Assembly: GCA_035548975.1 (NCBI GenBank)
Contig: DASZRY010000001.1
Location: 1,439 to 65,438 of the forward strand
Length of the DNA: 64,000 bases
Source: Rhizomicrobium sp.
GTDB lineage: Bacteria; Pseudomonadota; Alphaproteobacteria; Micropepsales; Micropepsaceae
Reading direction: 5' to 3'
Position numbers and translations under genes: made by a program. This document shows positions 40,158 to 60,964 of the stretch, one piece after another. Numbering within the stretch: position 1 is the stretch's first letter; the number at the start of each line of letters is the position of its first letter. Under the pieces are notes generated by a model. The model saw only the letters and a list, made by a program, of their open reading frames with translations, did not search any database and was not told the origin of the DNA.

Positions 40158-40171
40158 TTGATCCATGTCAA
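40158..40171 (-). promoter_or_regulatory. FNR/FixK box of the diiron protein gene
   Basis: TTGATCCATGTCAA (minus strand TTGAC-N4-ATCAA), centre ~58 nt upstream of start. Confidence 0.7.
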
Positions 40172-41780: not shown

Positions 41781-41794
41781 TTGATCAGGATCAA
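41781..41794 (-). promoter_or_regulatory. Perfect FNR/FixK box upstream of the monooxygenase
   Basis: TTGATCAGGATCAA, centre ~61 nt upstream of GTG 41726. Confidence 0.82.
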
Positions 41795-49757: not shown

Positions 49758-49771
49758 TTGATTTGGATCAA
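49758..49771 (-). promoter_or_regulatory. Perfect FNR/FixK box upstream of ccoNOQP
   Basis: TTGATTTGGATCAA; cco operons are canonical FNR/FixK targets. Confidence 0.85.
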
Positions 49772-49833: not shown

Positions 49834-50112
49834 TTAATTGTGCACGGATGCAGGTGGCGCGATTCCGAAGGCCGAACAGATGCGGTTGTGACGGAGGCTT
49901 CCAAGCGCAGAATTCTGCGTCGAATAGGCATATGCAAGTCCGCCTCCCAGCAGGCACAACCCCAACGCCGCAGAGGCAATGGCCAGAAGGCCCATTCGTG
50001 GTAGGCCTTCACGCAGATGAAGAAATGTACTGTTCGAACGATCAATCTTCACGATGCCTGCAACGGCCGCGAGCTGCGTAAGAAGAAGTCCGATGAAGGT
50101 ACAGCAAAGCAT
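49834..50112 (-). CDS. Possible small two-TM membrane protein (or relic)
   Basis: Two hydrophobic stretches; lies just downstream of the perfect box at 50148; no family recognised. Confidence 0.35.
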   Translation of the reverse strand: MLCCTFIGLLLTQLAAVAGIVKIDRSNSTFLHLREGLPRMGLLAIASAALGLCLLGGGLAYAYSTQNSALGSLRHNRICSAFGIAPPASVHN

Positions 50113-50147: not shown

Positions 50148-50161
50148 TTGATTCGGATCAA
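50148..50161 (-). promoter_or_regulatory. Perfect FNR/FixK box
   Basis: TTGATTCGGATCAA in AT-rich intergenic DNA. Confidence 0.78.
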
Positions 50162-50166
50162 GTTTT

Positions 50167-51726
50167 TCAAAGGTGCTGCTTGGCCTGCCGAACAATGTCC
50201 CGGCTTTGTCCACTGGCTTCTATCATGGTCCAATTCTCAGGTTGGGAGAAGGTGGCAATCTGATTGGCCAGAACCCTGACATCGGCATCCGAAGCATCTC
50301 CTTGCCGCTTCCTGAGCCGATCCTCGAGAATCGCGCGAGGGGCCGTAAGCCAAAAGCCGCTGAAGGCAACAGAGTTGACGGCGGCCACCAATTCAATCGC
50401 CCGTCTTTCCTCATCGTCACCGAACGTTGCATCGGCAATGACCGAATGGCCCGCCTTAAGAGCCGCCTCGGCCAACAATCGAAGTCGCGCATATACTGCG
50501 CGGCTCGTTTTGCGACTGTACGCGCATTCCCCGAGCTTCGAGGTTTTGGGAACATTGAGCATTTCTTTGCGGATGACATCGGTGCGCAGCACCACTGCGC
50601 CGGGCGCGGCGCCAATCGTAGGCGCAAGCTCGCGTGCAACGCTGCTTTTTCCGGCTCCCGAGAATCCGCCTATAGCAATCATGACGGGCGTTTGCGGTTC
50701 AAGATAAATCGCCGCTTTCTCAAGAAGGGCGCGTGAATCCGAGCCTGATCCGGAAGACCGCGTCTTCTGCATGGCCAGCGTTACGTGGGCGCGTATACCG
50801 GCGCGGCAGGAAAGCAAAAGCGGCAAGGGCGCCAATAGCGAATAATCGCCAGAGCATTCCAGGTAGCGGTTCAGAAGCGCATTGGCATGCCCGCGGAGAT
50901 TCTTGAAGTCCAGATCCATGAGTAGAAAGGCGAGGTCGTAAGCCACATCGATGCAACTGAAGGCATCCTGAAATTCTACGGCGTCGAATGGTTGGGGGCT
51001 TCCGCCGATCATGCAGATATTGTTCAGATGCAGATCGCCATGGCAGCGTCTTACCAGTCCCTGTGAACGCCGATTGTCGAGAGTCGTTCGCAGTCGATTC
51101 AGCCAATGTTGCGAAAGCGCCGCATAGCGGTCGACAAGTCCAGCCGGAAAGGCCTCCGGGGTTGCACGCAGGATGGAAATGTTCTCTTCAACAACGGCTT
51201 GAATGCCCGCGCTTCCGCCGAAGGAGGGCGTCAGTTCAGCCTTCGCATGAAATTCCGCCAACACTTCGCCCAAACGTATCGCATCAGCGATTGCAAGCGT
51301 TCCGTTTTTCCGGCGTTCTTCCAGAAGATCGCGCTGGTCAAAACGCTTCATCACGACAACCCAATCGATGGCGCGAGGATCGTCCTTGGAACCGAATTGC
51401 AGGACGTTGTCGTCATCGACAATGCTATGAACGGTTTCGTACATCTCCGGAGCCATTCGCCGGTTGATTTCAAATTCCCGTTGACACATTGCTTTGCGAA
51501 GCGCCTGCGTCGAATAATCCATGTAGGGAAACTTGACTGCGCGTTTCAGCTTGTGCGCGTGCGTCTTGGAAAGGAAAACGATGGAACCGTGGGTTTCACA
51601 AATTTCAACGGGTTCGGATTGACCGTAGGTTGCTGAATTGGAGAGGAACGCGATGACCCTTTTCTGCGGGTCTCCCACGGAGGGCGAGGCAGAATACGTG
51701 GCAGGGGCGAATTGCGACTTGGCCAT
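50167..51726 (-). CDS. Bifunctional aminoglycoside-phosphotransferase-like kinase / AAA_33 P-loop protein (Rv2004c-like)
   Basis: HGDLHLNNI, DAVEF, DVAYDLAFLLMDL; C-terminal GGFSGAGKS and VIADATF. Confidence 0.9.
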   Translation of the reverse strand: MAKSQFAPATYSASPSVGDPQKRVIAFLSNSATYGQSEPVEICETHGSIVFLSKTHAHKLKRAVKFPYMDYSTQALRKAMCQREFEINRRMAPEMYETVHSIVDDDNVLQFGSKDDPRAIDWVVVMKRFDQRDLLEERRKNGTLAIADAIRLGEVLAEFHAKAELTPSFGGSAGIQAVVEENISILRATPEAFPAGLVDRYAALSQHWLNRLRTTLDNRRSQGLVRRCHGDLHLNNICMIGGSPQPFDAVEFQDAFSCIDVAYDLAFLLMDLDFKNLRGHANALLNRYLECSGDYSLLAPLPLLLSCRAGIRAHVTLAMQKTRSSGSGSDSRALLEKAAIYLEPQTPVMIAIGGFSGAGKSSVARELAPTIGAAPGAVVLRTDVIRKEMLNVPKTSKLGECAYSRKTSRAVYARLRLLAEAALKAGHSVIADATFGDDEERRAIELVAAVNSVAFSGFWLTAPRAILEDRLRKRQGDASDADVRVLANQIATFSQPENWTMIEASGQSRDIVRQAKQHL

Positions 51727-51767
51727 GGCTTGATCGAATATCTCATGCGCGTTCCATTCGCGAAAAT

Positions 51768-51781
51768 GTGACCTACATCAA
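51768..51781. promoter_or_regulatory. FNR/FixK-like box between divergent kinase and hsp20 genes
   Basis: GTGACCTACATCAA (perfect ATCAA half, variant left half), central in the 114-nt intergenic gap. Confidence 0.6.
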
Positions 51782-51840
51782 GAACGCGACCTCACTTCAG
51801 GCGCAGTCTTTCAGCGTCGTCTCTTAGGAGGAGATACCTG

Positions 51841-52365
51841 ATGGCTGAACTCGCAACCAAACTTCCAGCGAAATCCGAATCCCGTGGCATCTTTGCGACG
51901 GGCTTCAACCCGTTCCAGGCGTTGCACCGCGAAATCGATCGGCTGTTCGGCGAATTTGATGGGGACTTCTGGCGTGCGCCGTTCCGCGGCTCGGTTTTCG
52001 ACCGGCTTCCCATGACCCGCGTGGAAACCATCTCCATGCCGGCCGTCGATGTGGCGGAGAAGGATAATGCCTATGAAATCACGGCAGAACTGCCTGGAAT
52101 CGAGGAAAAAGACATCGACGTGAAACTTTCCAACGGCAGGCTGACGATCAAAGGTGAGAAGAAAGCCGAGAAAGAAGAGAAGAAAAAGGACTACTATCTT
52201 TCCGAACGGACTTACGGCTCCTTCGAGCGGAGTTTCTCCGTTCCCGATGGAATTGAGGCCGACAAGATCGCAGCGACATTCAAGAACGGCGTGCTTACCA
52301 TTACGATCCCGAAGTCGCCCGAGGCGCACAAAGAGGAAAAGAGGATCGCGGTGAAGGCTTCCTGA
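51841..52365 (+). CDS. Hsp20/alpha-crystallin family protein
   Basis: NPFQALHREIDRLF, PAVDVAE, ELPGI, SERTYGSFERSFSVP, ATFKNGVLTITIPK; AGGAGGAG RBS. Confidence 0.95.
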   Translation: MAELATKLPAKSESRGIFATGFNPFQALHREIDRLFGEFDGDFWRAPFRGSVFDRLPMTRVETISMPAVDVAEKDNAYEITAELPGIEEKDIDVKLSNGRLTIKGEKKAEKEEKKKDYYLSERTYGSFERSFSVPDGIEADKIAATFKNGVLTITIPKSPEAHKEEKRIAVKAS

Positions 52366-52372
52366 TGTGTAT

Positions 52373-52404
52373 GCCGGATGGCGGGCACTTGCCCGCCATC
52401 CGGC
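52373..52404. other. Perfect 14-bp GC-rich hairpin between hsp20 and the host-attachment gene
   Basis: gccggatggcgggc-actt-gcccgccatccggc; no U-tract, so more likely an mRNA stabilising/processing stem than a terminator. Confidence 0.6.
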
Positions 52405-52460
52405 GGGGAAGTTGGACCGTTCCCACGACGCTGGCGTATCCACTATCGCAGGAGGCATGA

Positions 52461-52913
52461 ATGCCCAAAATTCCACTCTCGAACGGCACATGGGTGGTTG
52501 CCTGCGACGGTGCCAAAGCCGTCGTCTTCGAGAATACGGGTGATTGGGAGTACCCCCATCTCGAATTGCGTCAGGAGATGGCACAACCCGATCCGCCCGA
52601 CCGGGAGATTTACACTGGCCCAAAGGGCCGCGTTTTCAATCGCGCCGATGGAGCAGGCAGCACAATCGAGCGCGATGATGCGCATCAGCGCGCCGAGATG
52701 CAGTTCATGAAGAGTGTCGCACACTATCTCGACAAGGCAGTGGCCGACGGCAAGATCAAAAAGATGGTCGTGGCGGCAGCGCCGCGCGCGCTCGGCGTTC
52801 TCAGGGCCGCGCTCTCCAAGCGGGCGCATGCCGCAATCATCGCCGAAATCGACCGGGACTATGTCAAGATGCCTGCCTATGAAATCGAGTCCGTATTGTC
52901 GAAGAAGCAATAG
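52461..52913 (+). CDS. Host attachment (AtsE-like / baeRF12) family protein, aeRF1-fold
   Basis: TWVVACDGAKAVVFEN, GRVF, F...VA..L, MVVAAAPRALGVLRAAL...I.AEIDRDYVK; no GGQ. Confidence 0.88.
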   Translation: MPKIPLSNGTWVVACDGAKAVVFENTGDWEYPHLELRQEMAQPDPPDREIYTGPKGRVFNRADGAGSTIERDDAHQRAEMQFMKSVAHYLDKAVADGKIKKMVVAAAPRALGVLRAALSKRAHAAIIAEIDRDYVKMPAYEIESVLSKKQ

Positions 52914-52939
52914 TTGTTTCCCATCCGGCGGGGGCAGAT

Positions 52940-54307
52940 ATGACCGTGACGCTCACATTCCTTGGCGGCGTCGGGACTGTCACCGGTTCGAAATATCTTC
53001 TGGAGAATAACGGCCGTCGGTTGTTGGTCGATTGCGGGCTTTTCCAAGGCTACAAGACTTTGCGCCTGCGCAACTGGGCAGCGCTTCCCGTCGCAGCCAG
53101 CAGCATCGACGCAGTGGTCTTGACCCACGCCCATCTCGATCACACGGGATACCTGCCGTTGCTTGTCAAGCATGGATTTGACGGGCCAGTATTTTGCACC
53201 GACGCAACACAAGATTTGTGTTCCATCCTGCTTCCCGATTCCGCACACCTGCAGGAGCGAGATGCCGAATCCGCCAATCGTTTTGGCTATTCCAAGCATC
53301 ATCCTGCGTTGCCGCTCTATACGGAAGAAGATGCGCAGCGCGCGCTCAAGCTGTTGCAGAAGAAGAAAATCGGCGAAACCTTCAACGTTCTGGAAGATGC
53401 GCGCGTCAAGTTTACGCGTGCCGGGCACATTCTCGGCGCTTCTTCCATTTCGTTAAACTGGGGCGGTGTGACGATCGTCATTTCCGGCGATATCGGACGC
53501 TATGACGATCCTCTGATGCCTGATCCAGAAACGCCGGAGCGGGCCGATTATCTGTTGATGGAATCGACCTACGGCGACAGAGTTCACGAAAAACGGGATC
53601 CGGCGGACGCGCTGGCCGAAATAATAGAAAAAACAATTCGTCGCGGCGGCACCATTGTGGTTCCTGCATTTGCGGTGGGGCGAGCGCAGATCTTACTTTA
53701 CCACATCGGACGACTAAGAGCTGCAAAACGCCTGCCGGACTGGTTGCCCATTTATCTGGACAGCCCTATGGCCATTGAAGCAACCGAGATTTTTCAACGC
53801 CATTTTGACGATCAGAAGCTATCTTCCACCGAACTCCGCTCATTGGATTCAAGCGTACAATATGTTCATACGGGCCAGGAATCGAAGGATGTAACCGACA
53901 ACCCGATGCCGAAGATCGTTATCTCGGCAAGCGGCATGGCGACAGGCGGGCGGGTTCTGCACCATCTCAAGCAATATGCGCCGGATCCGAAGAATGCGAT
54001 CATTTTTGCGGGCTTTCAGGCTGGCGGTACGCGCGGCGCATCCATGGTGGCGGGCGCGGAAAGCGTGAAAATACATGGAGCCTATATTCCCGTTCGCGCC
54101 GACGTGCACAATTTGAACATGCTGTCCGCACACGCCGACCGCGACGAACTCCTTCGCTGGGCGGGAGCGATGAAGGCGCCACCGCGCACGACCTTCATTG
54201 TACATGGTGAACCGTCAGGCGCGGACGTTTTGCGTCATACACTCGAGGAAAAGCTGCATTGGAACTGCGTGGTGCCGGATTATCGCGAAACGGTGATCCT
54301 CTCATGA
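52940..54307 (+). CDS. MBL-fold beta-CASP ribonuclease (YSH1-like)
   Basis: THAHLDHTG, GDIG, ESTYGDR, PAFAVGRAQ, SGMATGGRVLHH, SAHAD, VHGE. Confidence 0.93.
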   Translation: MTVTLTFLGGVGTVTGSKYLLENNGRRLLVDCGLFQGYKTLRLRNWAALPVAASSIDAVVLTHAHLDHTGYLPLLVKHGFDGPVFCTDATQDLCSILLPDSAHLQERDAESANRFGYSKHHPALPLYTEEDAQRALKLLQKKKIGETFNVLEDARVKFTRAGHILGASSISLNWGGVTIVISGDIGRYDDPLMPDPETPERADYLLMESTYGDRVHEKRDPADALAEIIEKTIRRGGTIVVPAFAVGRAQILLYHIGRLRAAKRLPDWLPIYLDSPMAIEATEIFQRHFDDQKLSSTELRSLDSSVQYVHTGQESKDVTDNPMPKIVISASGMATGGRVLHHLKQYAPDPKNAIIFAGFQAGGTRGASMVAGAESVKIHGAYIPVRADVHNLNMLSAHADRDELLRWAGAMKAPPRTTFIVHGEPSGADVLRHTLEEKLHWNCVVPDYRETVILS

Positions 54308-55824
54308 TCGATCCGACCGGCCAGCATCCGCAACAACTGAAGGTGCGCCACCTGGGCATTGACACCCATTCCGATGCGGTAGTCTTCATGCGAAAGGATT
54401 CGCCGGTGTGCCGGTCGGAAGGTTTTGCCTCCCACAATCGCATCATGCTTTGCGCCGGGGACCGCTACATCATTGCGACGCTCTATCAGGTGGAATCCGG
54501 TCTGCTTGCGGCCGACGAAGCCGGCCTTTCAAGCGCCGCCTGGCAGCGCCTGGAGGCAAAGGATGGCGAAATTGTCATCGCGAAACACGCGCCGCCGCTG
54601 GAATCGCTGAGCCTCGTGCGCAGCCGCATTTACGGACACACGCTCGGCGATGACGCGTTGCATGCAATTGTTGCCGATATTGTGGACGGCCGCTATTCGA
54701 CCATCGAAATTTCGTCTTTTGTCACTACCTGCGCCACGCGTCCGCTAGTCCGTTCTGAAGTGCTGGGTCTCACGCGCGCCATGGTCCGGACCGGCGGGCG
54801 TCTTTCGTGGGATGTTCCGGTTGTCGCTGACAAGCATTCCGTCGGAGGCCTGCCCGGAAATCGTACAACGCCGATAATCGTTTCGATTATCGCGTCGCTT
54901 GGTCTTATTATGCCAAAAACGTCTTCTCGAGCCATCACATCGCCTGCTGGTACTGCCGACACAATGGAGACGCTTGCACCTGTCGTCTTGGATGCCAAAA
55001 AAATCCATGACGTTGTTGAACGCGAAGGCGGTTGCATCGCCTGGGGAGGGGCAGTCGGTCTCAGCCCGGCCGACGACATTCTGATTCGTGTCGAACGCGC
55101 GCTCGATCTCGATACCGAAGGTCAGATGATTGCCTCAGTCCTTTCGAAAAAGATCGCGGCCGGGTCAACACATCTGGTGCTCGATATTCCCGTGGGCCCC
55201 ACCGCGAAAGTTCGCAATGAAGATGCTGCCAAATCGATGACGGCCGGTCTCATGGCAGTCGCAGAATCGTTCGGCATTCGCACGCACATTGTCTGCGGGG
55301 ACGGTACGCAACCCATCGGCCGGGGGATAGGACCCGCACTTGAAGCAAGAGACGTGTTGAGCGTGCTCAAGAATGAAGCGCACGCGCCGCAGGATTTACG
55401 GCAACGCGCACTGAAATTGGCGGGAGCACTTCTCGAATTGGGCGGTAAGGCGCAAGCAGGAATGGGCGAGGACGTGGCGGCCAAGACATTGGATGACGGC
55501 AGAGCATGGAACAAATTCCAGCGCATCTGCGAAGCGCAGGGTGGGATGCGCACACCGCCGATCTCCAGCCATCGAAGGGCGTTATCGGCGGCTCGTCACG
55601 GCGCAGTTGGAACAATCGACAATCGCAAGATTGCGCGGCTGGCCAAACTCGCCGGTGCGCCCGAAGACAAGGCCGCAGGCGTCGAACTGCACGTCAAGGC
55701 CGGCGACACCGTGGTGCGCGGACAGCCACTTTGCACTGTCCACGCGGAATCGCCGGGCGAATTGGCGTATGCGCTGAATTATGCCGAGGCCAATCCCGAT
55801 ATCTTCCAGATCGAAGATATATGA
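54304..55824 (+). CDS. Thymidine phosphorylase family protein of the AMP-phosphorylase type
   Basis: N-terminal extension (LGIDT...VFMR) typical of AMP phosphorylases; DKHSVGGLPGNRTT, KTSSRAITSPAGTAD, SVLSKKIAAGS, GRGIGPALEA. Confidence 0.9.
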   Translation: MIDPTGQHPQQLKVRHLGIDTHSDAVVFMRKDSPVCRSEGFASHNRIMLCAGDRYIIATLYQVESGLLAADEAGLSSAAWQRLEAKDGEIVIAKHAPPLESLSLVRSRIYGHTLGDDALHAIVADIVDGRYSTIEISSFVTTCATRPLVRSEVLGLTRAMVRTGGRLSWDVPVVADKHSVGGLPGNRTTPIIVSIIASLGLIMPKTSSRAITSPAGTADTMETLAPVVLDAKKIHDVVEREGGCIAWGGAVGLSPADDILIRVERALDLDTEGQMIASVLSKKIAAGSTHLVLDIPVGPTAKVRNEDAAKSMTAGLMAVAESFGIRTHIVCGDGTQPIGRGIGPALEARDVLSVLKNEAHAPQDLRQRALKLAGALLELGGKAQAGMGEDVAAKTLDDGRAWNKFQRICEAQGGMRTPPISSHRRALSAARHGAVGTIDNRKIARLAKLAGAPEDKAAGVELHVKAGDTVVRGQPLCTVHAESPGELAYALNYAEANPDIFQIEDI

Positions 55825-56708
55825 GCGTGCCGCTACTCTTCGCTATGCCCGGCAACGAGGCGATGACGCAGCGGCTCGTGCCGCTCACGCGGGGCGATGT
55901 GGGAACACTGCAGGTTCGCAATTTTCCCGACCGGGAAACCTATTTGCGATTTCGCGACAAGCTTTCCGGCCGTTCGGTTGCTTTAGTTTGCACACTCGCA
56001 GATCCCGATCCCAAAATACTTCCGTTGCTTTTTGCGGCCGACACTGCGCGCGAGTTGGGCGCAGTAAAAGTGGGTCTCGTTGCACCATACCTTGCCTATA
56101 TGCGGCAGGACCGCCGTTTCCATCCGGGCGAAGCGATCACCTCGCAGCGATTTGCGGCAATCCTTTCGCAATCCCTCGATTGGCTTGTCACGATCGATCC
56201 GCATTTGCACCGCTACAAATCGCTTGCCGAACTCTACAGTATTCCCACCCGTGTTCTGCACAGCGGCACGACTCTGTCGAAATGGATTGTCGAAAAGGTC
56301 CCCAATCCGTTCATTGTTGGACCGGACGAGGAAAGTGAACAATGGGTGGCTGAGATCGCAAGAGAGTCCGGCGCACCATATAGCGTGTTGCATAAACGGC
56401 GACTGGAAGACGAACGGGTGGAGATCGACGTAGGCCACCTCGGACCTATTGGAAACAAAACACCGATTCTGGTGGACGATATCATCTCAAGCGGCGGCAC
56501 AATGCTGGAAGCTATTCGAAAGCTTGCGGAGCTCGTTCGAATTCCGCCAGTCTGCCTTGCCGTGCACGGGATATTTGCAAATCACTCGGACCAGCTTCTC
56601 GTCGATGCCGGCGCACGCTTGGTCACTACCGACAGCATTGAAAATCCTCACGCCGAAATCGGCATTGCTCCTTTGCTGGCGTCTGCCATCTCCGAATTCG
56701 TGTCTTGA
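55821..56708 (+). CDS. prs: Ribose-phosphate pyrophosphokinase (accessory, archaeal-like short type)
   Basis: FPDRETY, PYLAYMRQDRRF, DPHLH, GPDEES, HKRR, VDDIISSGGT. Confidence 0.9.
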   Translation: MSVPLLFAMPGNEAMTQRLVPLTRGDVGTLQVRNFPDRETYLRFRDKLSGRSVALVCTLADPDPKILPLLFAADTARELGAVKVGLVAPYLAYMRQDRRFHPGEAITSQRFAAILSQSLDWLVTIDPHLHRYKSLAELYSIPTRVLHSGTTLSKWIVEKVPNPFIVGPDEESEQWVAEIARESGAPYSVLHKRRLEDERVEIDVGHLGPIGNKTPILVDDIISSGGTMLEAIRKLAELVRIPPVCLAVHGIFANHSDQLLVDAGARLVTTDSIENPHAEIGIAPLLASAISEFVS

Positions 56709-56724
56709 AGAAGCGGGAATATTC

Positions 56725-57183
56725 GTGCCCCAGGTCAGCGCAGGAATTCTTCTCTACCGGAGAAAGGGCGGCGAATTGCAGGTGTTTCTTGTTCATCCGG
56801 GGGGTCCTTTCTGGGCGGGGAAAGATGTTGCCGCCTGGTCGATTCCCAAGGGCTTGATCGGCCCCGATGAAAACACGCTTGACGCCGCCAGACGCGAATT
56901 TTTCGAGGAAACCGGATTTCGCCTGGATGGCGAGGCTCATGAACTTGGCGTTTTCCGTCAACCAAGCGGAAAGCGAATCCATGTTTGGATCCAGAAAGGC
57001 AATTGCAATCCTTCGCGCCTCGTGAGCAACAGATTTAAGATGATTTGGCCGCCGAAGTCCGGCAAGACGAAGACTTTTCCCGAAGTCGATCGTGGCGGGT
57101 GGTTCAAAAGGCAAGAAGCCATGGCGAAAGTCGCCAAAGGCCAACGGCCAATCATCGAAGCGCTTTTCAAAAAGTTTGGCTAG
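56725..57183 (+). CDS. Nudix hydrolase
   Basis: Nudix box GLIGPDENTLDAARREFFEETG; HPGGPFW, FPEVDR; GTG start. Confidence 0.9.
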   Translation: MPQVSAGILLYRRKGGELQVFLVHPGGPFWAGKDVAAWSIPKGLIGPDENTLDAARREFFEETGFRLDGEAHELGVFRQPSGKRIHVWIQKGNCNPSRLVSNRFKMIWPPKSGKTKTFPEVDRGGWFKRQEAMAKVAKGQRPIIEALFKKFG

Positions 57184-57186
57184 GGG

Positions 57187-59574
57187 TCATTGAGATGCAG
57201 GCTGCTCCGGCGAAAGGCCGGCTGCAATTGCATCCTTCAAATGTTCGAGCCAGATAAATTCCAACTTATCGCGCGCTTCGGTGGGAATGTCGTCAAAATC
57301 CTTCCGGTTGCGTGCAGGCAGCATGACGCGTTTGATACCGGCACGCGCGGCAGCAGCGACTTTCTCCTTTATGCCGCCCACGGGAAGCACCAGCCCCCGC
57401 AAACTGATTTCGCCCGTCATCGCGGTGTCGCTACGAACGGTGCGATCCGTCATCAAAGAAATCAGCGCCATGAACATTGCAACGCCTGCGCTTGGTCCGT
57501 CTTTGGGCGTGGCGCCCGCCGGTACGTGAATATGAATATCGCTCTTCTCGAAACGGGCGGGATCTATGCCTAGGGAAGCCGCCGAGCCTTTCACAACGCT
57601 CAACGCCGCTTGCGCACTTTCGCGCATCACTTCGCCGAGCTGGCCGGTCAGGATCAGCTTGCCGCTGCCAGGAATGCGCGTTGCCTCGATAAAAAGTATG
57701 TCTCCACCCACGGGAGTCCAGGCAAGGCCGGTGGCCACCCCCGGAATGCTTGTGCGCAATGCGACTTCATCTTCGAACACTGGCGGCCCCAGGATTTCTT
57801 TGAGATCGCTTGCACCAATGTGCACCGTGCCCGGCCGGCCTTCGGCAATGCGCACGGCGGCATGGCGCAATGCCTTTCCAATCTGCCGCTCGAGGCTGCG
57901 AACGCCGGCTTCGCGCGTGTAGTGATCGATTATGTCGCGAATCGCATCATCGCCAAGTTCCGCCTGACCTTCCTTCAGACCGTTGGCTTCCATTTGCCGT
58001 CCAACGAGGTAGCGTTTGGCAATTTCGAACTTTTCGGTGGCTGTGTAACCGCTGAGGTTGATGATCTCCATGCGGTCGCGCAGCGGACCTGGAACTGTAT
58101 CCAACACATTTGCTGTAGTTATAAATACGACGCGGCTCAGGTCGAACGGCACAGCCAGATAGTTGTCCCGGAATGTCGCGTTCTGTTCGGGGTCGAGTAC
58201 TTCAAGCAAGGCTGCACTGGGGTCGCCCTGTATACCTGCGCCGAGTTTATCGATTTCATCGAGCATCATCACGCAATCGCGTGAGCCCGCCTTGCGGATC
58301 GCCTGAATGATATTGCCCGGCAGCGAACCGATGTAAGTCCGCCGATGACCGCGAATCTCCGCCTCATCGTGCACACCGCCAAGGCTGACGCGCACGAATT
58401 TGCGCTTCATTGCGCGCGCGATGGACTGGCCAAGCGATGTTTTTCCCACGCCTGGCGGTCCAACGAAACACAAGATCGGCGCCTTGCCCGTTGGCGCCAA
58501 TTTGCGAACCGCGAGATATTCCACGATTCGCTGCTTAATCTTTTCGAGACCATAGTGGTCCGCGTCCAGAACGCGGCGCGCCTCCGCCATGTCGATAGGC
58601 GCTTCTTCCGGCAATGCCCAAGGAAGTTCGATCAACCAGTCGAGATAGGTGCGCACCATGCTGTATTCGCCTGCGGCTTCCGGCATGCGCTCCAGCCGCT
58701 TCAATTCCTTGCGGGCCTGGTCTTCGACCTCGCGCGGCATTTTTGCTTTGGCGATCGCCTCCGACAGTTCTGCTAATTCAGCGGCCTTGCCTTGCTCGCC
58801 GCCTTCGCCGAGCTGACGCTGGATTGCCGCCATTTGTTCGCGCAACAAGACTTCGCGTTGCCGTTCGTCCAGGGCGGCTTTCGTTTGCCGGCCGATTTCC
58901 TGCGAGAGGCGCTGGACCTCGATCCGGTGGGCAAGGAGCTTGGACACCTTTTCCATGCGCGCGGAAATATCGATCGTTTCGAGGATCTCCTGCTTTTCCT
59001 CCGGCTTGATATCCATGTAAGCCGCAGAAAGATCCGCAAGCGCTCCTGGAGAATCAATTGCTTCGATCGCAGCGATCAATTCCGTGGGCGCTTGCGGAAG
59101 CAATTGGACGGATTCCAGTGCCTGCTGTTTGAGTACCGAAAGCCGCGCTTCGATCTCGGATGATTTCGCAGTGGGCTCCGAAATTCGCAGGACACGCGCT
59201 GCCATGAACGGCCAACCGTCAAGAAATTCCGTAATTTGAAATCGCTGTTCGCCCTGACAAACGAGATGGGTCGACCCATCTGGCGCTGTGAGATAGCGCA
59301 CGATATTGGCGACGGTCCCAACTCGATGCATGTCCAAAGGAGACGGCTCGGCAACTTCGGATTCGCGTTGCAGCAAAATGCCGACGGGTGTCTGCAGTCG
59401 CACCGCCTGCTGCGCCGCGGCCAATGACCGCGGACGTCCAACAGTCACGGGAAATACAATTCCCGGAAACAGCACGAGATTGCGTACTGGCACGATGATC
59501 AAAGCATCCGATGGCAATGGCTTTTCTTGCGCCGTCCCGCCGCCGCCACCCGTGTCATTACGCAAATCAGCCAC
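57187..59574 (-). CDS. lon: Lon (La) ATP-dependent protease
   Basis: DADHYGLEKIK, GPPGVGKTS, RGHRRTYIG, PKDGPSAG catalytic Ser, VGGIKEK; GTG start with GGAG RBS. Confidence 0.96.
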   Translation of the reverse strand: MADLRNDTGGGGGTAQEKPLPSDALIIVPVRNLVLFPGIVFPVTVGRPRSLAAAQQAVRLQTPVGILLQRESEVAEPSPLDMHRVGTVANIVRYLTAPDGSTHLVCQGEQRFQITEFLDGWPFMAARVLRISEPTAKSSEIEARLSVLKQQALESVQLLPQAPTELIAAIEAIDSPGALADLSAAYMDIKPEEKQEILETIDISARMEKVSKLLAHRIEVQRLSQEIGRQTKAALDERQREVLLREQMAAIQRQLGEGGEQGKAAELAELSEAIAKAKMPREVEDQARKELKRLERMPEAAGEYSMVRTYLDWLIELPWALPEEAPIDMAEARRVLDADHYGLEKIKQRIVEYLAVRKLAPTGKAPILCFVGPPGVGKTSLGQSIARAMKRKFVRVSLGGVHDEAEIRGHRRTYIGSLPGNIIQAIRKAGSRDCVMMLDEIDKLGAGIQGDPSAALLEVLDPEQNATFRDNYLAVPFDLSRVVFITTANVLDTVPGPLRDRMEIINLSGYTATEKFEIAKRYLVGRQMEANGLKEGQAELGDDAIRDIIDHYTREAGVRSLERQIGKALRHAAVRIAEGRPGTVHIGASDLKEILGPPVFEDEVALRTSIPGVATGLAWTPVGGDILFIEATRIPGSGKLILTGQLGEVMRESAQAALSVVKGSAASLGIDPARFEKSDIHIHVPAGATPKDGPSAGVAMFMALISLMTDRTVRSDTAMTGEISLRGLVLPVGGIKEKVAAAARAGIKRVMLPARNRKDFDDIPTEARDKLEFIWLEHLKDAIAAGLSPEQPASQ

Positions 59575-59983
59575 GGCCGCGCTCCGTTTTGTGAAGCGTG
59601 ACGACGATGCAGCCGTCCAGTGATGCTCTTTCGACGCCGCTGTATCGTCCCGCCGGCACCACAATCCGCCGGCTGAACCGGCCTTGCGGAAGCTCCAGCC
59701 GGTGGATGGTCGCCGTCGCAAGTTCGCGCGGCAGATGACGCGCGCCCGAAATCACGAGACAGCCCCCGTCGATTCTCGCTTCCACACTTTCGGGATTGAC
59801 GCCTGGCAGGGCAGCGAAGATCAGAATCTTGCTGGCCGTTTCGATGATGTCGACCGGCGGTTCCCAACTGGGTCCCGCCGATCCATGTTGGGGCTCAAAA
59901 AATTGACGGTGCAAGCGCTCCGCGCGCGTGAGCATCTCCACGGCTTCGGACCACATCCAGCTTCGCGGATAGCGATCTTCCAT
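59567..59983 (-). CDS. Hsp20 family protein co-transcribed with lon
   Basis: WEPPVDIIET, AALPGV, HRLELPQGRFSRRI; GAGGAG RBS; overlaps lon start. Confidence 0.88.
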   Translation of the reverse strand: MEDRYPRSWMWSEAVEMLTRAERLHRQFFEPQHGSAGPSWEPPVDIIETASKILIFAALPGVNPESVEARIDGGCLVISGARHLPRELATATIHRLELPQGRFSRRIVVPAGRYSGVERASLDGCIVVTLHKTERGRG

Positions 59984-60094
59984 CGCGGCACTCCTCATTC
60001 CTTTGAACTTATTCCATACCTATCGCCAGAGCGGTTCAAGCCGGGTCGCACTTCCCCATCCCCAGGACAGGTTCCAGAATTTCAATTTGTGACC

Positions 60095-60310
60095 TTAGTG
60101 TTTGCTCAGATGACGCTCGACATACCAAAGCGCTCCGAGCCAAACAGCGATGCCAAGGCCGGCTGCCGCCACCAGCGCATACAAGAGATCGACGTCGCCC
60201 GTAATGCTGAATACGGCTAGAAAAACGAAGGCGGCAAAGCCAATTCCGATGATATGAGCGATCCGGCGAAGGCGCCCTCTTGCTGCTGAATGTTCTGCGT
60301 CGGGCGTCAC
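60095..60310 (-). CDS. Small two-TM membrane protein
   Basis: 71 aa with two hydrophobic helices; follows a perfect FNR box. Confidence 0.6.
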   Translation of the reverse strand: MTPDAEHSAARGRLRRIAHIIGIGFAAFVFLAVFSITGDVDLLYALVAAAGLGIAVWLGALWYVERHLSKH

Positions 60311-60364
60311 ATGAGCCGATCGTTAAACTCCATCACCATTGTGGCGGTTAGATGCCGGAGGGCC

Positions 60365-60378
60365 TTGATTCAAATCAA
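60365..60378 (-). promoter_or_regulatory. Perfect FNR/FixK box
   Basis: TTGATTCAAATCAA, centre ~61 nt upstream of GTG 60310. Confidence 0.8.
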
Positions 60379-60499
60379 CCTTTTCGAGCCCTTTGGGCGT
60401 GAGCAGGTCTCAGGTCCATTGCAGGCGGAAGAGATCGTATTTCATCGCCGCAGTTACCGATTTCTGCTGCAGGAGTTTTCGGCGATTGAAGATGTGGCG

Positions 60500-60690
60500 C
60501 TTGTCATAATTCTGGCCGACGAACCAACCGGGATTCTCGATACCACATCGGTTGCCACTGTTCGGGACATCCCAATGGTTTTGGCACGCCAGCGCGGGCG
60601 AACATTCGCATTCGTTACCCACGGCCAGCAATTCGCAAGCGAGGCCGATCGCACGATCATGGTCACGCACGGCCGCATCGCGCGACCTTC
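60500..60690 (+). pseudogene. Remnant of a LolD/MacB-type ABC ATPase C-terminus
   Basis: ILADEPTGILD...LARQRGRTFAFVTHGQQFASEADRTIMVTHGRI (Walker B, D-loop and H-loop) without Walker A or a start. Confidence 0.7.
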
Positions 60691-60713
60691 ATGCCGACTT
60701 CAGCGTGGAGGCT

Positions 60714-60788
60714 TGGCTGGGGCGGAAGGATTCGAACCTTCGAATGCCGGAATCAAAATCCGGTGCCTTACCACTTGGCGACGCCCCA
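60714..60788 (-). tRNA. tRNA-Gln (TTG)
   Basis: TGGGGCGTCGCCAAGTGGTAAGGCACCGGATTTTGATTCCGGCATTCGAAGGTTCGAATCCTTCCGCCCCAGCCA, 75 nt with CCA. Confidence 0.97.
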
Positions 60789-60964
60789 ACAGGCCCGAAA
60801 CTCAAGGGCTTCCGGGCAGATCCTTCGGCCCGGGCGGGCGCGGAGGCGGCGGACCATAGGGCCTCACCCAGCGCCGTTCAATGTGCCCTAACCACTCCCA
60901 CGCCCAGGCACTGACATTCCGTCACAGGATTGCTAAGGAGGCCCGCCCCAAAGAGAGGCCATTC

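Follow-up and report, generated by a model that had tools for sequence, protein, structure and literature searches.

A probable FixK/FNR-type low-oxygen island of mosaic composition beside ccoNOQP-GHIS in Rhizomicrobium sp.

In the 64,000-nucleotide stretch of Rhizomicrobium sp. DNA analyzed here (the window), the genes between ccoNOQP-GHIS and a tRNA-Gln gene probably form not one conserved machine but a lineage-specific island, mosaic in composition, that belongs to the FixL/FixJ–FixK (FNR-type) low-oxygen regulon. Judged by analogy with related bacteria, in which its gene families are already targets of the FixK switch, the island is of a known kind. Only two units within it are conserved: the trio encoding a beta-CASP RNase, a thymidine-phosphorylase (TP)-family enzyme, and a paralogue of ribose-phosphate diphosphokinase (PRS), and the Hsp20b–Lon2 pair. 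As far as sequence comparison can tell, the kinase, baeRF12, Hsp20a, and Nudix are single genes that recur in other alphaproteobacterial FixK/FNR islands in other combinations. The gene content claimed in an initial annotation of this DNA is real and was confirmed in place by Pfam, NCBIfam, PDB, and fold searches (Table 1).

Table 1. Features of the island and its borders, in window coordinates
Feature	Coordinates	Strand	Evidence or remark
Perfect FNR/FixK box TTGATTTGGATCAA	49758..49771	.	0 mismatches; upstream of ccoN, outside the module listed initially
92-aa predicted membrane ORF	49834..50112	-	Gene call present in contigs of the same species; no Pfam match
Perfect FNR/FixK box TTGATTCGGATCAA	50148..50161	.	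Upstream of the 92-aa ORF and ccoN, 3' of the kinase gene
Bifunctional APH-like/P-loop (AAA_33, Zeta-toxin-like) kinase	50167..51726	-	Pfam
Candidate degenerate FixK box GTGACCTACATCAA	51768..51781	.	Divergent kinase/hsp20 intergenic region
Hsp20a, Hsp20/alpha-crystallin small heat-shock protein	51841..52365	+	PF00011, E 5.5e-30
GC-rich 14-bp hairpin without U tract	52373..52404	+	Directly 3' of hsp20a stop; fold -52.6 kcal/mol, z -3.9
baeRF_family12 (baeRF12)/Host_attach, single-domain aeRF1-fold protein without GGQ	52461..52913	+	Pfam E 4e-37
Beta-CASP ribonuclease, metallo-beta-lactamase fold	52940..54307	+	Beta-Casp, RMMBL, and Lactamase_B; HAHLDH motif
TP-family enzyme, archaeal AMP-phosphorylase-like type, N-terminal extension	54304..55824	+	NF003338, TIGR02645, PDB
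Divergent second PRS paralogue, PRK07199 subfamily	55821..56708	+	NF005537
Nudix hydrolase, 152 aa	56725..57183	+	PF00293; Nudix box REFFEETGF intact
Lon2, second Lon protease	57187..59574	-	TIGR00763, 914 bits
Hsp20b, divergent second Hsp20	59567..59998	-	PF00011, E 8.5e-8
sm71, two-TM 71-aa ORF, reality uncertain	60095..60310	-	Between box 60365 and hsp20b
Perfect FNR/FixK box TTGATTCAAATCAA	60365..60378	.	Heads (sm71)-hsp20b-lon2 unit
tRNA-Gln, right-hand island edge	60714..60788	-	ARAGORN; Rfam tRNA, 66.5 bits

At least four transcription units are predicted. The first would run from box 50148 through the 92-aa membrane ORF towards ccoN, and the second would consist of the APH/P-loop kinase gene alone. 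Diverging from the latter at a weak FixK-like site, the third would comprise hsp20a, the hairpin, and then the genes for baeRF12, the beta-CASP RNase, the AMP-phosphorylase-like enzyme, the PRS paralogue, and Nudix; the fourth would lead from box 60365 through (sm71) to hsp20b and lon2. The trio and the Hsp20b–Lon2 pair would thus be conserved modules recruited into the island. The baeRF12–Nudix unit is tightly packed, with successive junctions of 26, -4, -4, and 16 bp that include ATGA overlaps; hsp20b overlaps the start of lon2, and lon2 converges on the Nudix gene with 3 bp between the stops. The hairpin is possibly a partial terminator or stabilizer that sets hsp20a apart from the genes downstream. 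The genome has only two Hsp20 genes, both inside the island.

The perfect boxes of the region, the regulators encoded in the genome, boxed homologues of its genes, and FixK2 data from Bradyrhizobium make it very probable that the region belongs to a FixK/FNR low-oxygen regulon. Defining a perfect box as the palindrome TTGAT-N4-ATCAA and an exact core as TTGA-N6-TCAA, we counted 8 perfect boxes in the 2.9-Mb draft genome (about 0.7 expected) and 66 exact cores (16 expected). Four of the eight perfect boxes lie inside the window, a share that far exceeds chance. The genome also has a second boxed island, in which genes for a FixL-like PAS histidine kinase and a CRP/FNR protein are found with a USP gene and one for a Pat-like acetyltransferase. 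Of the three FNR boxes claimed earlier, those at 50148 and 60365 are perfect, but the site at 51768 (GTGACctacATCAA), the sole candidate for the kinase gene and for the six-gene unit from hsp20a to Nudix, has two mismatches, and sites of this quality number 29 in the window versus 22 expected, the level of chance. Its distances to the ATG codons of the kinase and hsp20 genes, 48 and 66 bp, fall within the range seen for the boxes of kinase homologues, and another locus (L120) has the same divergent kinase/Hsp20 arrangement with an exact core. At the level of the regulon, the low-oxygen control proposed at the outset is credible; it also draws on the boxed Hyphomonas locus and on the trio genes beside fixL–fixJ–fixK in the closest other species, both described below. 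The boxes do not wire the module in the way that had been implied: box 50148 lies 6 bp past the kinase gene, whose stop codon ends at 50167, on its 3' side. It points to the 92-aa ORF (minus strand) and to ccoN; no gene of the listed module can be driven from it, and ccoN (ORF start at or below 49650, minus strand) has a box of its own at 49758.

The orientation of box 50148 and the chance-level quality of site 51768 would both fit a general stress or heat-shock cluster that merely adjoins cco; its stress genes would answer RpoH or general-stress signals instead of oxygen, and the perfect boxes would serve cco and small ORFs. The same can be said of the Hsp20b–Lon2 pairs in five other genomes, at which no FNR box was found, so that this module is not intrinsically oxygen-regulated, and of sm71, which may be no gene: public annotation of this species leaves it out, and it has no family match in Pfam or NCBIfam and no detected homologue upstream of other Hsp20b–Lon2 pairs. 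We nevertheless regard this explanation as unlikely. Box 60365, the center of which precedes the start of the 71-aa ORF by 61 bp, has no plausible target except the hsp20b–lon2 unit, since the tRNA gene on its other side points away; the intergenic regions contain neither a sigma-70-like promoter nor a ROSE thermometer; FNR-type boxes lie 30 to 204 bp upstream in 8/20 kinase homologues; and homologous families are FixK2-dependent in Bradyrhizobium.

Within a mosaic FixK island, the trio is one of the two conserved parts: beside the TP-family gene at 80 loci across Proteobacteria, PRS was found at 70 and beta-CASP at 54, making beta-CASP–TP–PRS a conserved chromosomal operon or module widespread in this group. 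The best solved relative of the beta-CASP protein is the Thermus thermophilus RNase TTHA0252 (E 1e-78). For the TP-family enzyme, scores of 669 bits to NF003338 and 590 bits to TIGR02645, together with a best PDB match to the Thermococcus kodakarensis AMPpase 4GA5 (E 4e-101, versus 1e-37 for classical phosphorylases), bear out the AMP-phosphorylase-like nature first read from the sequence. The PRS paralogue scores 350 bits to NF005537 (cut-off, 322), finds its best PDB match in Methanocaldococcus jannaschii 1U9Y, and shares 25% identity with the housekeeping prs encoded elsewhere, on C75. Boxes accompany the trio at 7/72 loci versus 3.5% in the control, and a recognizable box directly upstream is absent from most trio loci. 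Around the 80 TP-family loci, baeRF12 occurs 3 times and Hsp20 6 times, while the kinase, Nudix, and Lon do not occur at all; the Nudix gene is a local addition to the operon.

This breadth across Proteobacterial chromosomes also argues against a horizontally acquired defense or toxin-type island at a tRNA gene, built from a Cas14-related beta-CASP nuclease, a Zeta-toxin-like kinase, a BrxL-like Lon protease domain, and Nudix. Such an origin would account for the tRNA-Gln at the island border, the slightly lower GC content (0.55 to 0.59 versus a genome mean of 0.60), and weak similarity to Cas14, Zeta_toxin, and BrxL models. However, every defense-model score falls far under its cut-off, PADLOC matches only the generic Lon protease domain, and we found no integrase and no match in a plasmid collection, which leaves this origin highly improbable.

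The other conserved unit of the mosaic island is the Hsp20b–Lon2 pair. Among 200 other alphaproteobacterial genomes, only five encode a protein of the Lon2 class (67 to 73% identity), and Hsp20b lies directly upstream in all five; the housekeeping Lon, on C4, is 46% identical to Lon2. The kinase, in which the motifs HGDLHLNN and GAGKSS are intact and whose relatives are annotated as [quoted passage not shown] is present in 64/201 genomes of the same order, and FixL, CRP/FNR, USP, and Pat-like genes are frequent in its loci. The AF2 model of baeRF12 (pLDDT, 76.8) has as its top Foldseek match Msmeg1130/Balon (8v9l_z; E 7e-6), followed by the aRF1/eRF1 M domain and Rv2629. This predicted structure upholds the aeRF1/Balon-like fold that had been assigned to the host-attachment protein; comparison with Balon chains gave no sequence-level match. 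In about 8/40 baeRF12 homologues, an exact core lies no more than about 250 bp upstream of the gene.

Conserved co-occurrence, on which the initial annotation had staked its reading of these genes as one system, fails for the whole set and holds only for the two sub-modules. It is consequently improbable that the ten genes are an integrated, co-evolving dormancy system, a FixK-controlled DosR counterpart with interdependent parts for ribosome parking, RNA recycling, and protein triage. Their clustering beside cco with perfect boxes and the Balon-like fold of baeRF12 would suit such a system, as would several partial parallels. In Hyphomonas (L040), a perfect box precedes Hsp20–DUF2267–beta-CASP–TP–PRS, with a convergent baeRF12 gene behind its own perfect box, an arrangement that by its sequence is an independent though partial replicate; a Rhizomicrobium locus (L001) likewise has the trio joined by Hsp20 and/or baeRF12; in L186, a FixK island of Bradyrhizobium-like type, a kinase relative is found together with Hsp20, DUF2267–baeRF12, and USP; and a beta-CASP gene lies within about 10 kb in 5 to 6 of 40 baeRF12 loci. 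Yet the full set was found nowhere else. The trio neighbors the kinase in only 1 to 2 of 20 kinase loci of the same order, TP/PRS accompany baeRF12 at 1 of 40 loci and Lon at none, and the pattern at the 80 TP-family loci and the box-free Lon2–Hsp20b pairs point the same way. In the closest other species the genes are split differently: beta-CASP–TP adjoin fixL–fixJ–fixK–USP–baeRF12, with no PRS beside them.

The comparison with DosR holds in part for a mosaic island. The Mycobacterium tuberculosis DosR dormancy regulon includes HspX, Rv2629/Balon, and Rv2004c, the last of which is given in the literature as a phosphotransferase-type protein, of presumed APH-AAA architecture. The DosR regulon answers hypoxia, as the island probably does; both include Hsp20-family, aeRF1-fold, and phosphotransferase-type proteins, and the modeled baeRF12 resembles Msmeg1130 and Rv2629 structurally; the regulator and motif, however, are those of DosR, not FNR/FixK. 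Rv2629/Balon has three domains (about 360 to 375 aa) and demonstrated A-site binding, whereas baeRF12 corresponds to the middle domain only (150 aa), without the N-terminal decoding domain or the C-terminal EF-Tu-binding domain; its ribosome binding is a prediction, and unlike Balon it has no HPF/RaiA neighbor here. Shared with the Balon/baeRF-1 clade are an aeRF1-superfamily RNase-H-like core without GGQ and a location among stress genes including Hsp20 (PMC10901736, PMC6514570). Burroughs and Aravind predict that such proteins, including core-domain-only families, enter the A site and regulate translation without catalysis (PMC10901736, PMC6514570).

The assertion that nothing of the sort had been described was too strong. 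In Bradyrhizobium diazoefficiens, the bll3117-3116-3115 operon (TP-family/PRS/MBL-hydrolase) is induced by microoxia at the RNA and protein levels, as are the host-attachment proteins bll4645 and bll5315 together with hspC2/blr4637 and blr7961; FixK2 dependence with mapped boxes is listed for bll3117-3115, bll4645, and hspC2 but not for bll5315 or blr7961, and USPs also belong to the FixK2 regulon (PMC6515984, PMC9104804). The likeness is drawn at the level of families (the TP-family/PRS/MBL operon, Host_attach, and Hsp20s) and extends to the box type, TTGA-N6-TCAA variants that include the degenerate ATGATCTGGGTCAA for bll3117. In contrast to the Bradyrhizobium genes, which are scattered over several loci, the Rhizomicrobium island has baeRF12 and Nudix in the trio's operon, with beta-CASP first in the trio, and adds the adjacent Lon2–Hsp20b pair with its own box; the portions of text and tables searched for the FixK2 regulon contained no Lon (PMC6515984, PMC9104804). 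The lxa locus of Burkholderia cenocepacia is likewise a low-oxygen locus of a proteobacterium; anoxic survival depends on it, and an explicit comparison with the DosR regulon has been drawn (PMC3721108). Besides a TGA-N6-TCA motif of the FNR/Anr type, it has an alpha-crystallin sHSP, a protein described as a "metal-dependent RNase," an ATP-dependent protease, acetate kinase, a cation ATPase, and genes for pentose/nucleotide turnover (PMC3721108). It differs in its size (about 50 genes, mostly USPs, PHA, and fermentation genes) and in its protease, a Zn protease and not Lon, and its tables do not report baeRF12, an APH–AAA kinase, or the TP-family enzyme (PMC3721108).

Ribosome parking, conversion of RNA to sugar phosphate, and protein triage are functions that we infer for the island. 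At low oxygen, FixK or an FNR-type paralogue would activate its promoters; the small heat-shock proteins and Lon2 could hold and clear damaged proteins; and the single-domain aeRF1-fold protein may bind the A-site region of the large subunit as a non-catalytic translation modulator. We found no biochemical test of baeRF12, the TP-family enzyme, the PRS paralogue, or the kinase in any bacterium in the literature. The archaeal pentose bisphosphate pathway consists of AMP phosphorylase, R15P isomerase, and RuBisCO. Compared with classical thymidine phosphorylases, the T. kodakarensis AMP phosphorylase is far nearer to the TP-family enzyme, and the two have the N-terminal domain in common; the PRS paralogue in turn comes closest to the archaeal class III enzymes. 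Against a close match, the TP-family enzyme scores 487.5 bits to the TIGR03327 AMP_phos equivalog, under the cut-off of 535, and the genome has no RuBisCO and a single IF-2B-family gene, located elsewhere. The partners here are instead the beta-CASP RNase, PRS, and Nudix, which with the AMP-phosphorylase-like enzyme might turn nucleotides from RNA into salvageable bases and phosphoribosyl compounds. Genes for phosphoketolase and acetate kinase often neighbor those of the trio in other Proteobacteria, and the salvage products may feed these enzymes there.

ORF listing and family searches confirmed every gene that the initial annotation had named beside the ccoNOQP-GHIS cluster (see the table). 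From baeRF12, encoding the single-domain aeRF1-fold host-attachment protein, to the Nudix gene, successive junctions measure 26 bp, −4, −4, and 16 bp, and for this reason we treat the stretch as an operon. The 95-bp gap between hsp20a and baeRF12 contains, directly 3′ of the hsp20a stop codon, a hairpin (52373-52404; z −3.9) that is very stable, with a perfect GC-rich stem of 14 bp and no U tract. By processing, stabilization, or attenuation, this element could decouple hsp20a levels from the five downstream genes. The stop codons of the convergent Nudix and lon2 genes are 3 bp apart (57183-57187) with no terminator-like structure between them, so that transcription of each of the two low-oxygen units would run into the other. 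The 71-aa ORF matched no family and is omitted from public annotations of this species; these call a plus-strand ORF of 182 to 200 aa at 60290-60859, which spans tRNA-Gln and is, almost certainly, a spurious call. For the island genes of this uncultured alphaproteobacterium, the nearest named relatives were Rhizomicrobium MAGs, and a megablast of the whole region against a plasmid collection gave no match. The island does not resemble an anti-phage defense island: PADLOC detected no defense system, its only match being that of a generic Lon domain to BrxL.

Genes of the island, the tRNA gene at its edge, and perfect FNR/FixK boxes (window positions)
Feature	Position	Strand	Remark
Kinase, 519 aa	50167-51726	-	APH-type kinase half (HGDLHLNN) plus P-loop AAA_33/Zeta-toxin-like half (GAGKSS)
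Hsp20 (hsp20a)	51841-52365	+	Divergent from kinase
baeRF_family12/Host_attach (baeRF12), 150 aa	52461-52913	+	
Beta-Casp/RMMBL metallo-hydrolase	52940-54307	+	
Thymidine-phosphorylase-family (TP-family) enzyme	54304-55824	+	
Ribose-phosphate diphosphokinase (PRS) paralogue	55821-56708	+	
Nudix hydrolase	56725-57183	+	
Lon protease (Lon2)	57187-59574	-	Convergent with Nudix
Divergent Hsp20 (hsp20b)	59567-59998	-	Overlaps lon2
Two-TM ORF, 71 aa	60095-60310	-	5′ of hsp20b
tRNA-Gln	60714-60788		Edge of island
TTGAT-N4-ATCAA box	41781		Perfect
TTGAT-N4-ATCAA box	49758		Perfect
TTGAT-N4-ATCAA box	50148		Perfect
TTGAT-N4-ATCAA box	60365		Perfect

Perfect TTGAT-N4-ATCAA boxes occur eight times in the 2.9-Mb draft genome against ∼0.7 expected, and half of them (4) fall within the window; for the relaxed core TTGA-N6-TCAA, the genome-wide count is 66 against 16 expected. 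The genome also carries the cognate sensor and regulator that characterize an FNR/FixK regulon: contig C14 encodes a FixL-like PAS–HisKA–HATPase kinase and a CRP/FNR HTH protein, and a second CRP-family gene is located on contig C62. Another trait of such a regulon, a palindromic box upstream of a transcription unit, is present at 60365 (hsp20b–lon2) and at 50148 (on the side of a 92-aa ORF and ccoN). The initial annotation had counted three FNR-type boxes, at 50148, 51768, and 60365. Two of these are indeed perfect, but the one at 50148 is located just past the 3′ terminus of the kinase gene, with the 92-aa membrane ORF and ccoN in front of it, and therefore drives none of the genes listed for the module. 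The center of box 60365 lies 61 bp upstream of the 71-aa ORF; for this box the hsp20b–lon unit is the only plausible target, and low-oxygen control of that unit is strongly suggested. The site at 51768 (GTGACctacATCAA) has two mismatches and is the only box candidate upstream of the kinase gene and the hsp20a–Nudix operon. Sites with two mismatches are found in the window at chance frequency (29 against 22 expected). On these statistics we dropped it as a third good box, and we keep it as a candidate by positional analogy with the boxes of kinase homologues, whose position it matches. Low-oxygen control of the kinase and of the six-gene unit from hsp20a to the Nudix gene is plausible but unproven. 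In the intergenic regions, no sigma-70-like promoters or terminators scored above shuffles; the absence of such promoters fits activator-dependent promoters. An Rfam scan for ROSE thermometers and other RNAs returned tRNA only.

Additional boxes were observed outside the island. Beyond ccoS, FNR-type boxes lie at 40158 (one mismatch) and 41781. In the region 9012-9696 of contig C34, a perfect box, TTGATCAGGATCAA, is identical to that at 41781. It precedes by 109 bp a 120-aa ORF that matches Pribosyltran_N weakly, and a second ORF comes next in a different frame; the pair may be a frameshifted additional PRS-like gene. A second low-oxygen island on contig C14 (169000-182000; L136) contains the FixL-like kinase, the CRP/FNR regulator, a tandem USP, several unknown ORFs, and a 907-aa Pat-like protein that joins an NDP-forming acyl-CoA synthetase to GNAT. 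Five exact TTGA-N6-TCAA cores are found there.

We surveyed gene neighborhoods in other genomes using three anchors: the TP-family, kinase, and baeRF12 genes. Around the TP-family gene (80 genome loci from Alpha-, Beta-, and Gammaproteobacteria, 10-kb flanks), PRS was present at 70 loci, the beta-CASP RNase at 54, Hsp20 at 6, and baeRF12 at 3; the kinase, Nudix, and Lon genes were found at none. Further frequent neighbors in these 80 loci were P-type ATPases (26), phosphoketolase (18), acetate kinase (10), USP (7), and CBS proteins (7). The core trio of beta-CASP, TP-family, and PRS genes is widespread: close homologues number more than 8,000, and no fewer than 599 loci in genomes were confirmed. 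The kinase occurs in 64 of the 201 genomes of the order. Its 20 sampled loci had the trio within 9 kb in one or two cases, Hsp20 in two, and ccoN in one; recurrent neighbors were FixL (5), CRP/FNR (4), USP (4), and Pat-like genes (4). baeRF12, found in 97 of 301 alphaproteobacterial genomes, was accompanied across 40 loci by beta-CASP in five or six, Hsp20 in two, the kinase in two, TP/PRS in one, and Lon in none. A Lon of the Lon2 type (67 to 73% identity) was detected in 5 of 200 other alphaproteobacterial genomes (G259, G264, G207, G364, and G344; L188-L192), in all five with an Hsp20b homologue immediately 5′; these pairs had neither FNR boxes nor the small ORF. We know of no description of the Hsp20b–Lon2 pair. 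In one of these genomes, the preceding gene resembles, as judged by eye, the C terminus of FtsH.

The initial annotation had proposed a candidate FNR-wired dormancy system, a counterpart of the DosR regulon, and had itself stated that a lack of conserved co-occurrence would refute it. The three surveys showed no set-wide co-occurrence, and by that standard the proposal fails for the whole set: the components do not travel together around the TP, kinase, or baeRF12 genes. Conservation is genuine for two sub-modules, beta-CASP–TP–PRS and Hsp20b–Lon2. The region is best read as a lineage-specific mosaic, assembled beside cco from members of the FixK/FNR regulon: these two modules plus several solitary, itinerant genes. 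In the closest other species (TP-family enzyme 77% identical; L193/L195), the beta-CASP–TP pair lacks an adjacent PRS and directly adjoins a fixL–fixJ–response regulator–fixK–USP series, with baeRF12 farther along; even the core trio can therefore lose PRS locally in close relatives.

At the level of the regulon, we consider the link to low oxygen real, with caveats. Kinase homologues had an FNR-type box 30 to 204 bp upstream of the start at 8 of 20 loci, far above a background of ∼1% per 400 bp, and these distances span the same range as that of the weak site at 51768. One homologue (L120) likewise diverges from an Hsp20 gene and has an exact core. An exact core also lies just upstream of baeRF12 genes in about 8 of 40 cases, and for the trio, 7 of 72 loci have a box no more than 450 bp away versus 3.5% in the control. 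Of independent partial replicates of the arrangement, the best is a Hyphomonas locus (L040), in which a perfect box precedes Hsp20–DUF2267–beta-CASP–TP–PRS and a convergent baeRF12 has its own perfect box. The DUF2267 protein between Hsp20 and the trio there (L040:8005-8463) is absent from the window. It also lies directly beside baeRF12 in a Bradyrhizobium-like genome (L186:10025-10504) and is another recurrent, uncharacterized member of such islands. In Bradyrhizobium diazoefficiens, microoxia induces a TP-family/PRS/MBL operon (bll3117-3115), the host-attachment genes bll4645 and bll5315, hspC2, and blr7961; bll3117-3115, bll4645, and hspC2, but not bll5315 or blr7961, are also listed as FixK2 dependent with mapped boxes (PMC6515984, PMC9104804).

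The remark in the initial annotation that it knew of no description as one system goes too far. The Burkholderia lxa locus, a published low-oxygen survival locus with FNR/Anr motifs and a parallel to DosR, holds genes for alpha-crystallin, a metal-dependent RNase, an ATP-dependent protease, and pentose turnover (PMC3721108). If the regulon reading is true, the island would be another case of aerobic Proteobacteria bundling survival functions under a FixK/FNR switch, a principle already documented in Bradyrhizobium and Burkholderia. Its greater value lies in its parts, each directly testable in culturable relatives: the trio is conserved in Alpha-, Beta-, and Gammaproteobacteria and repeatedly linked to hypoxia, the Lon2–Hsp20 pair is rare, and baeRF12 is a one-domain relative of the hibernation factor Balon with a predicted link to the ribosome.

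The TP-family enzyme passed the cutoffs of NF003338 (669 bits; cutoff, 434) and TIGR02645 (590 bits; cutoff, 434.6) and scored 487.5 bits against TIGR03327, the archaeal AMP phosphorylase, below the equivalog cutoff of 535. Among solved structures, Thermococcus AMP phosphorylase is its closest relative (E value, 4e-101, against ∼1e-37 for classical phosphorylases), so the label "AMP-phosphorylase-like" is fair, short of established membership in that family. No RuBisCO large subunit was found in the genome, and the one IF-2B-family gene is on another contig; the partners of the AMP phosphorylase pathway, R15P isomerase and RuBisCO, thus do not accompany the enzyme. We rejected an archaeal-type pentose bisphosphate pathway because RuBisCO is absent. 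The PRS paralogue belongs to subfamily PRK07199 (NF005537, 350 bits; cutoff, 322), contains the PRPP-binding loop DDIISSGGT, and has archaeal class III enzymes as its nearest relatives; the genome carries its housekeeping prs at another location. The beta-CASP protein has MBL, Beta-Casp, and RMMBL domains and the HxHxDH motif (as HAHLDH), and its nearest relative is the Thermus thermophilus RNase TTHA0252 (E value, 1e-78). Lon2 is a second copy with 46% identity to the housekeeping Lon. The kinase matched nothing in PDB. Of Rv2004c, the APH-AAA protein with which the initial annotation compared it, published work bears out only DosR membership and weak phosphotransferase activity (PMC8701281).

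From family membership we infer roles in sHSP/Lon proteostasis, in ribosome binding by the aeRF1-fold protein, and in RNA-to-nucleotide-to-phosphoribosyl salvage. A literature search on the biochemistry of the bacterial AMP-phosphorylase/PRS/MBL trio returned omics lists only. A speculative reading, to which we give rather low credence, is that the baeRF12–beta-CASP–AMP-phosphorylase-like–PRS(–Nudix) operon encodes an uncharacterized low-oxygen-induced pathway for dismantling surplus ribosomal or other RNA. The single-domain aeRF1-fold protein would engage idle ribosomes, and the beta-CASP RNase would produce 5′-NMPs. These would be cleaved by the AMP-phosphorylase-like enzyme to base and ribose-1,5-bisphosphate, which the PRS-like enzyme would convert to PRPP. 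In Proteobacteria with adjoining phosphoketolase and acetate kinase genes, ribose might be fermented for ATP instead. In many Beta- and Gammaproteobacteria and some Alphaproteobacteria (e.g., L016, L025, L041, and L045), the trio is interleaved with phosphoketolase/acetate kinase genes and flanked by a P-type ATPase gene, an arrangement that hints at fermentation of ribose to acetyl phosphate for ATP. At several TP loci, PRS lies ∼4.7 kb upstream of TP, an offset that, judged by spacing, fits a phosphoketolase gene between them.

Sequence searches of PDB with baeRF12, as a single sequence or a 27-sequence profile, gave nothing meaningful; matches came only from a fold search. With the AlphaFold model (pLDDT, 76.8), Foldseek ranked Msmeg1130/Balon first, followed by the aRF1/eRF1 middle domain and Rv2629, and the GGQ motif is absent from both the sequence and the family alignment, which bears out an aeRF1-superfamily fold without GGQ. 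Balon has three domains (N, M, and C) in about 360 to 375 aa, whereas baeRF12 has one domain in 150 aa. The model aligns to the middle domain only (TM, 0.23 to 0.28, target normalized; 0.63 against the isolated eRF1 M domain, 2hst), and the three-domain Balon architecture is lacking. The role of Balon is proven for three-domain proteins only (PMC10901736), and baeRF-1 families cut down to the core domain are predicted to be noncatalytic translation regulators (Burroughs and Aravind, PMC6514570). No biochemical support for single-domain baeRF proteins was found in the searched literature. Many baeRF12 copies (L148-L187) reside in housekeeping contexts without FNR boxes, with neighbors that by eye include rlmE/ftsJ, ppx/gppA, guaB, and guaA. 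The family appears divided between constitutive subgroups and others regulated by hypoxia.
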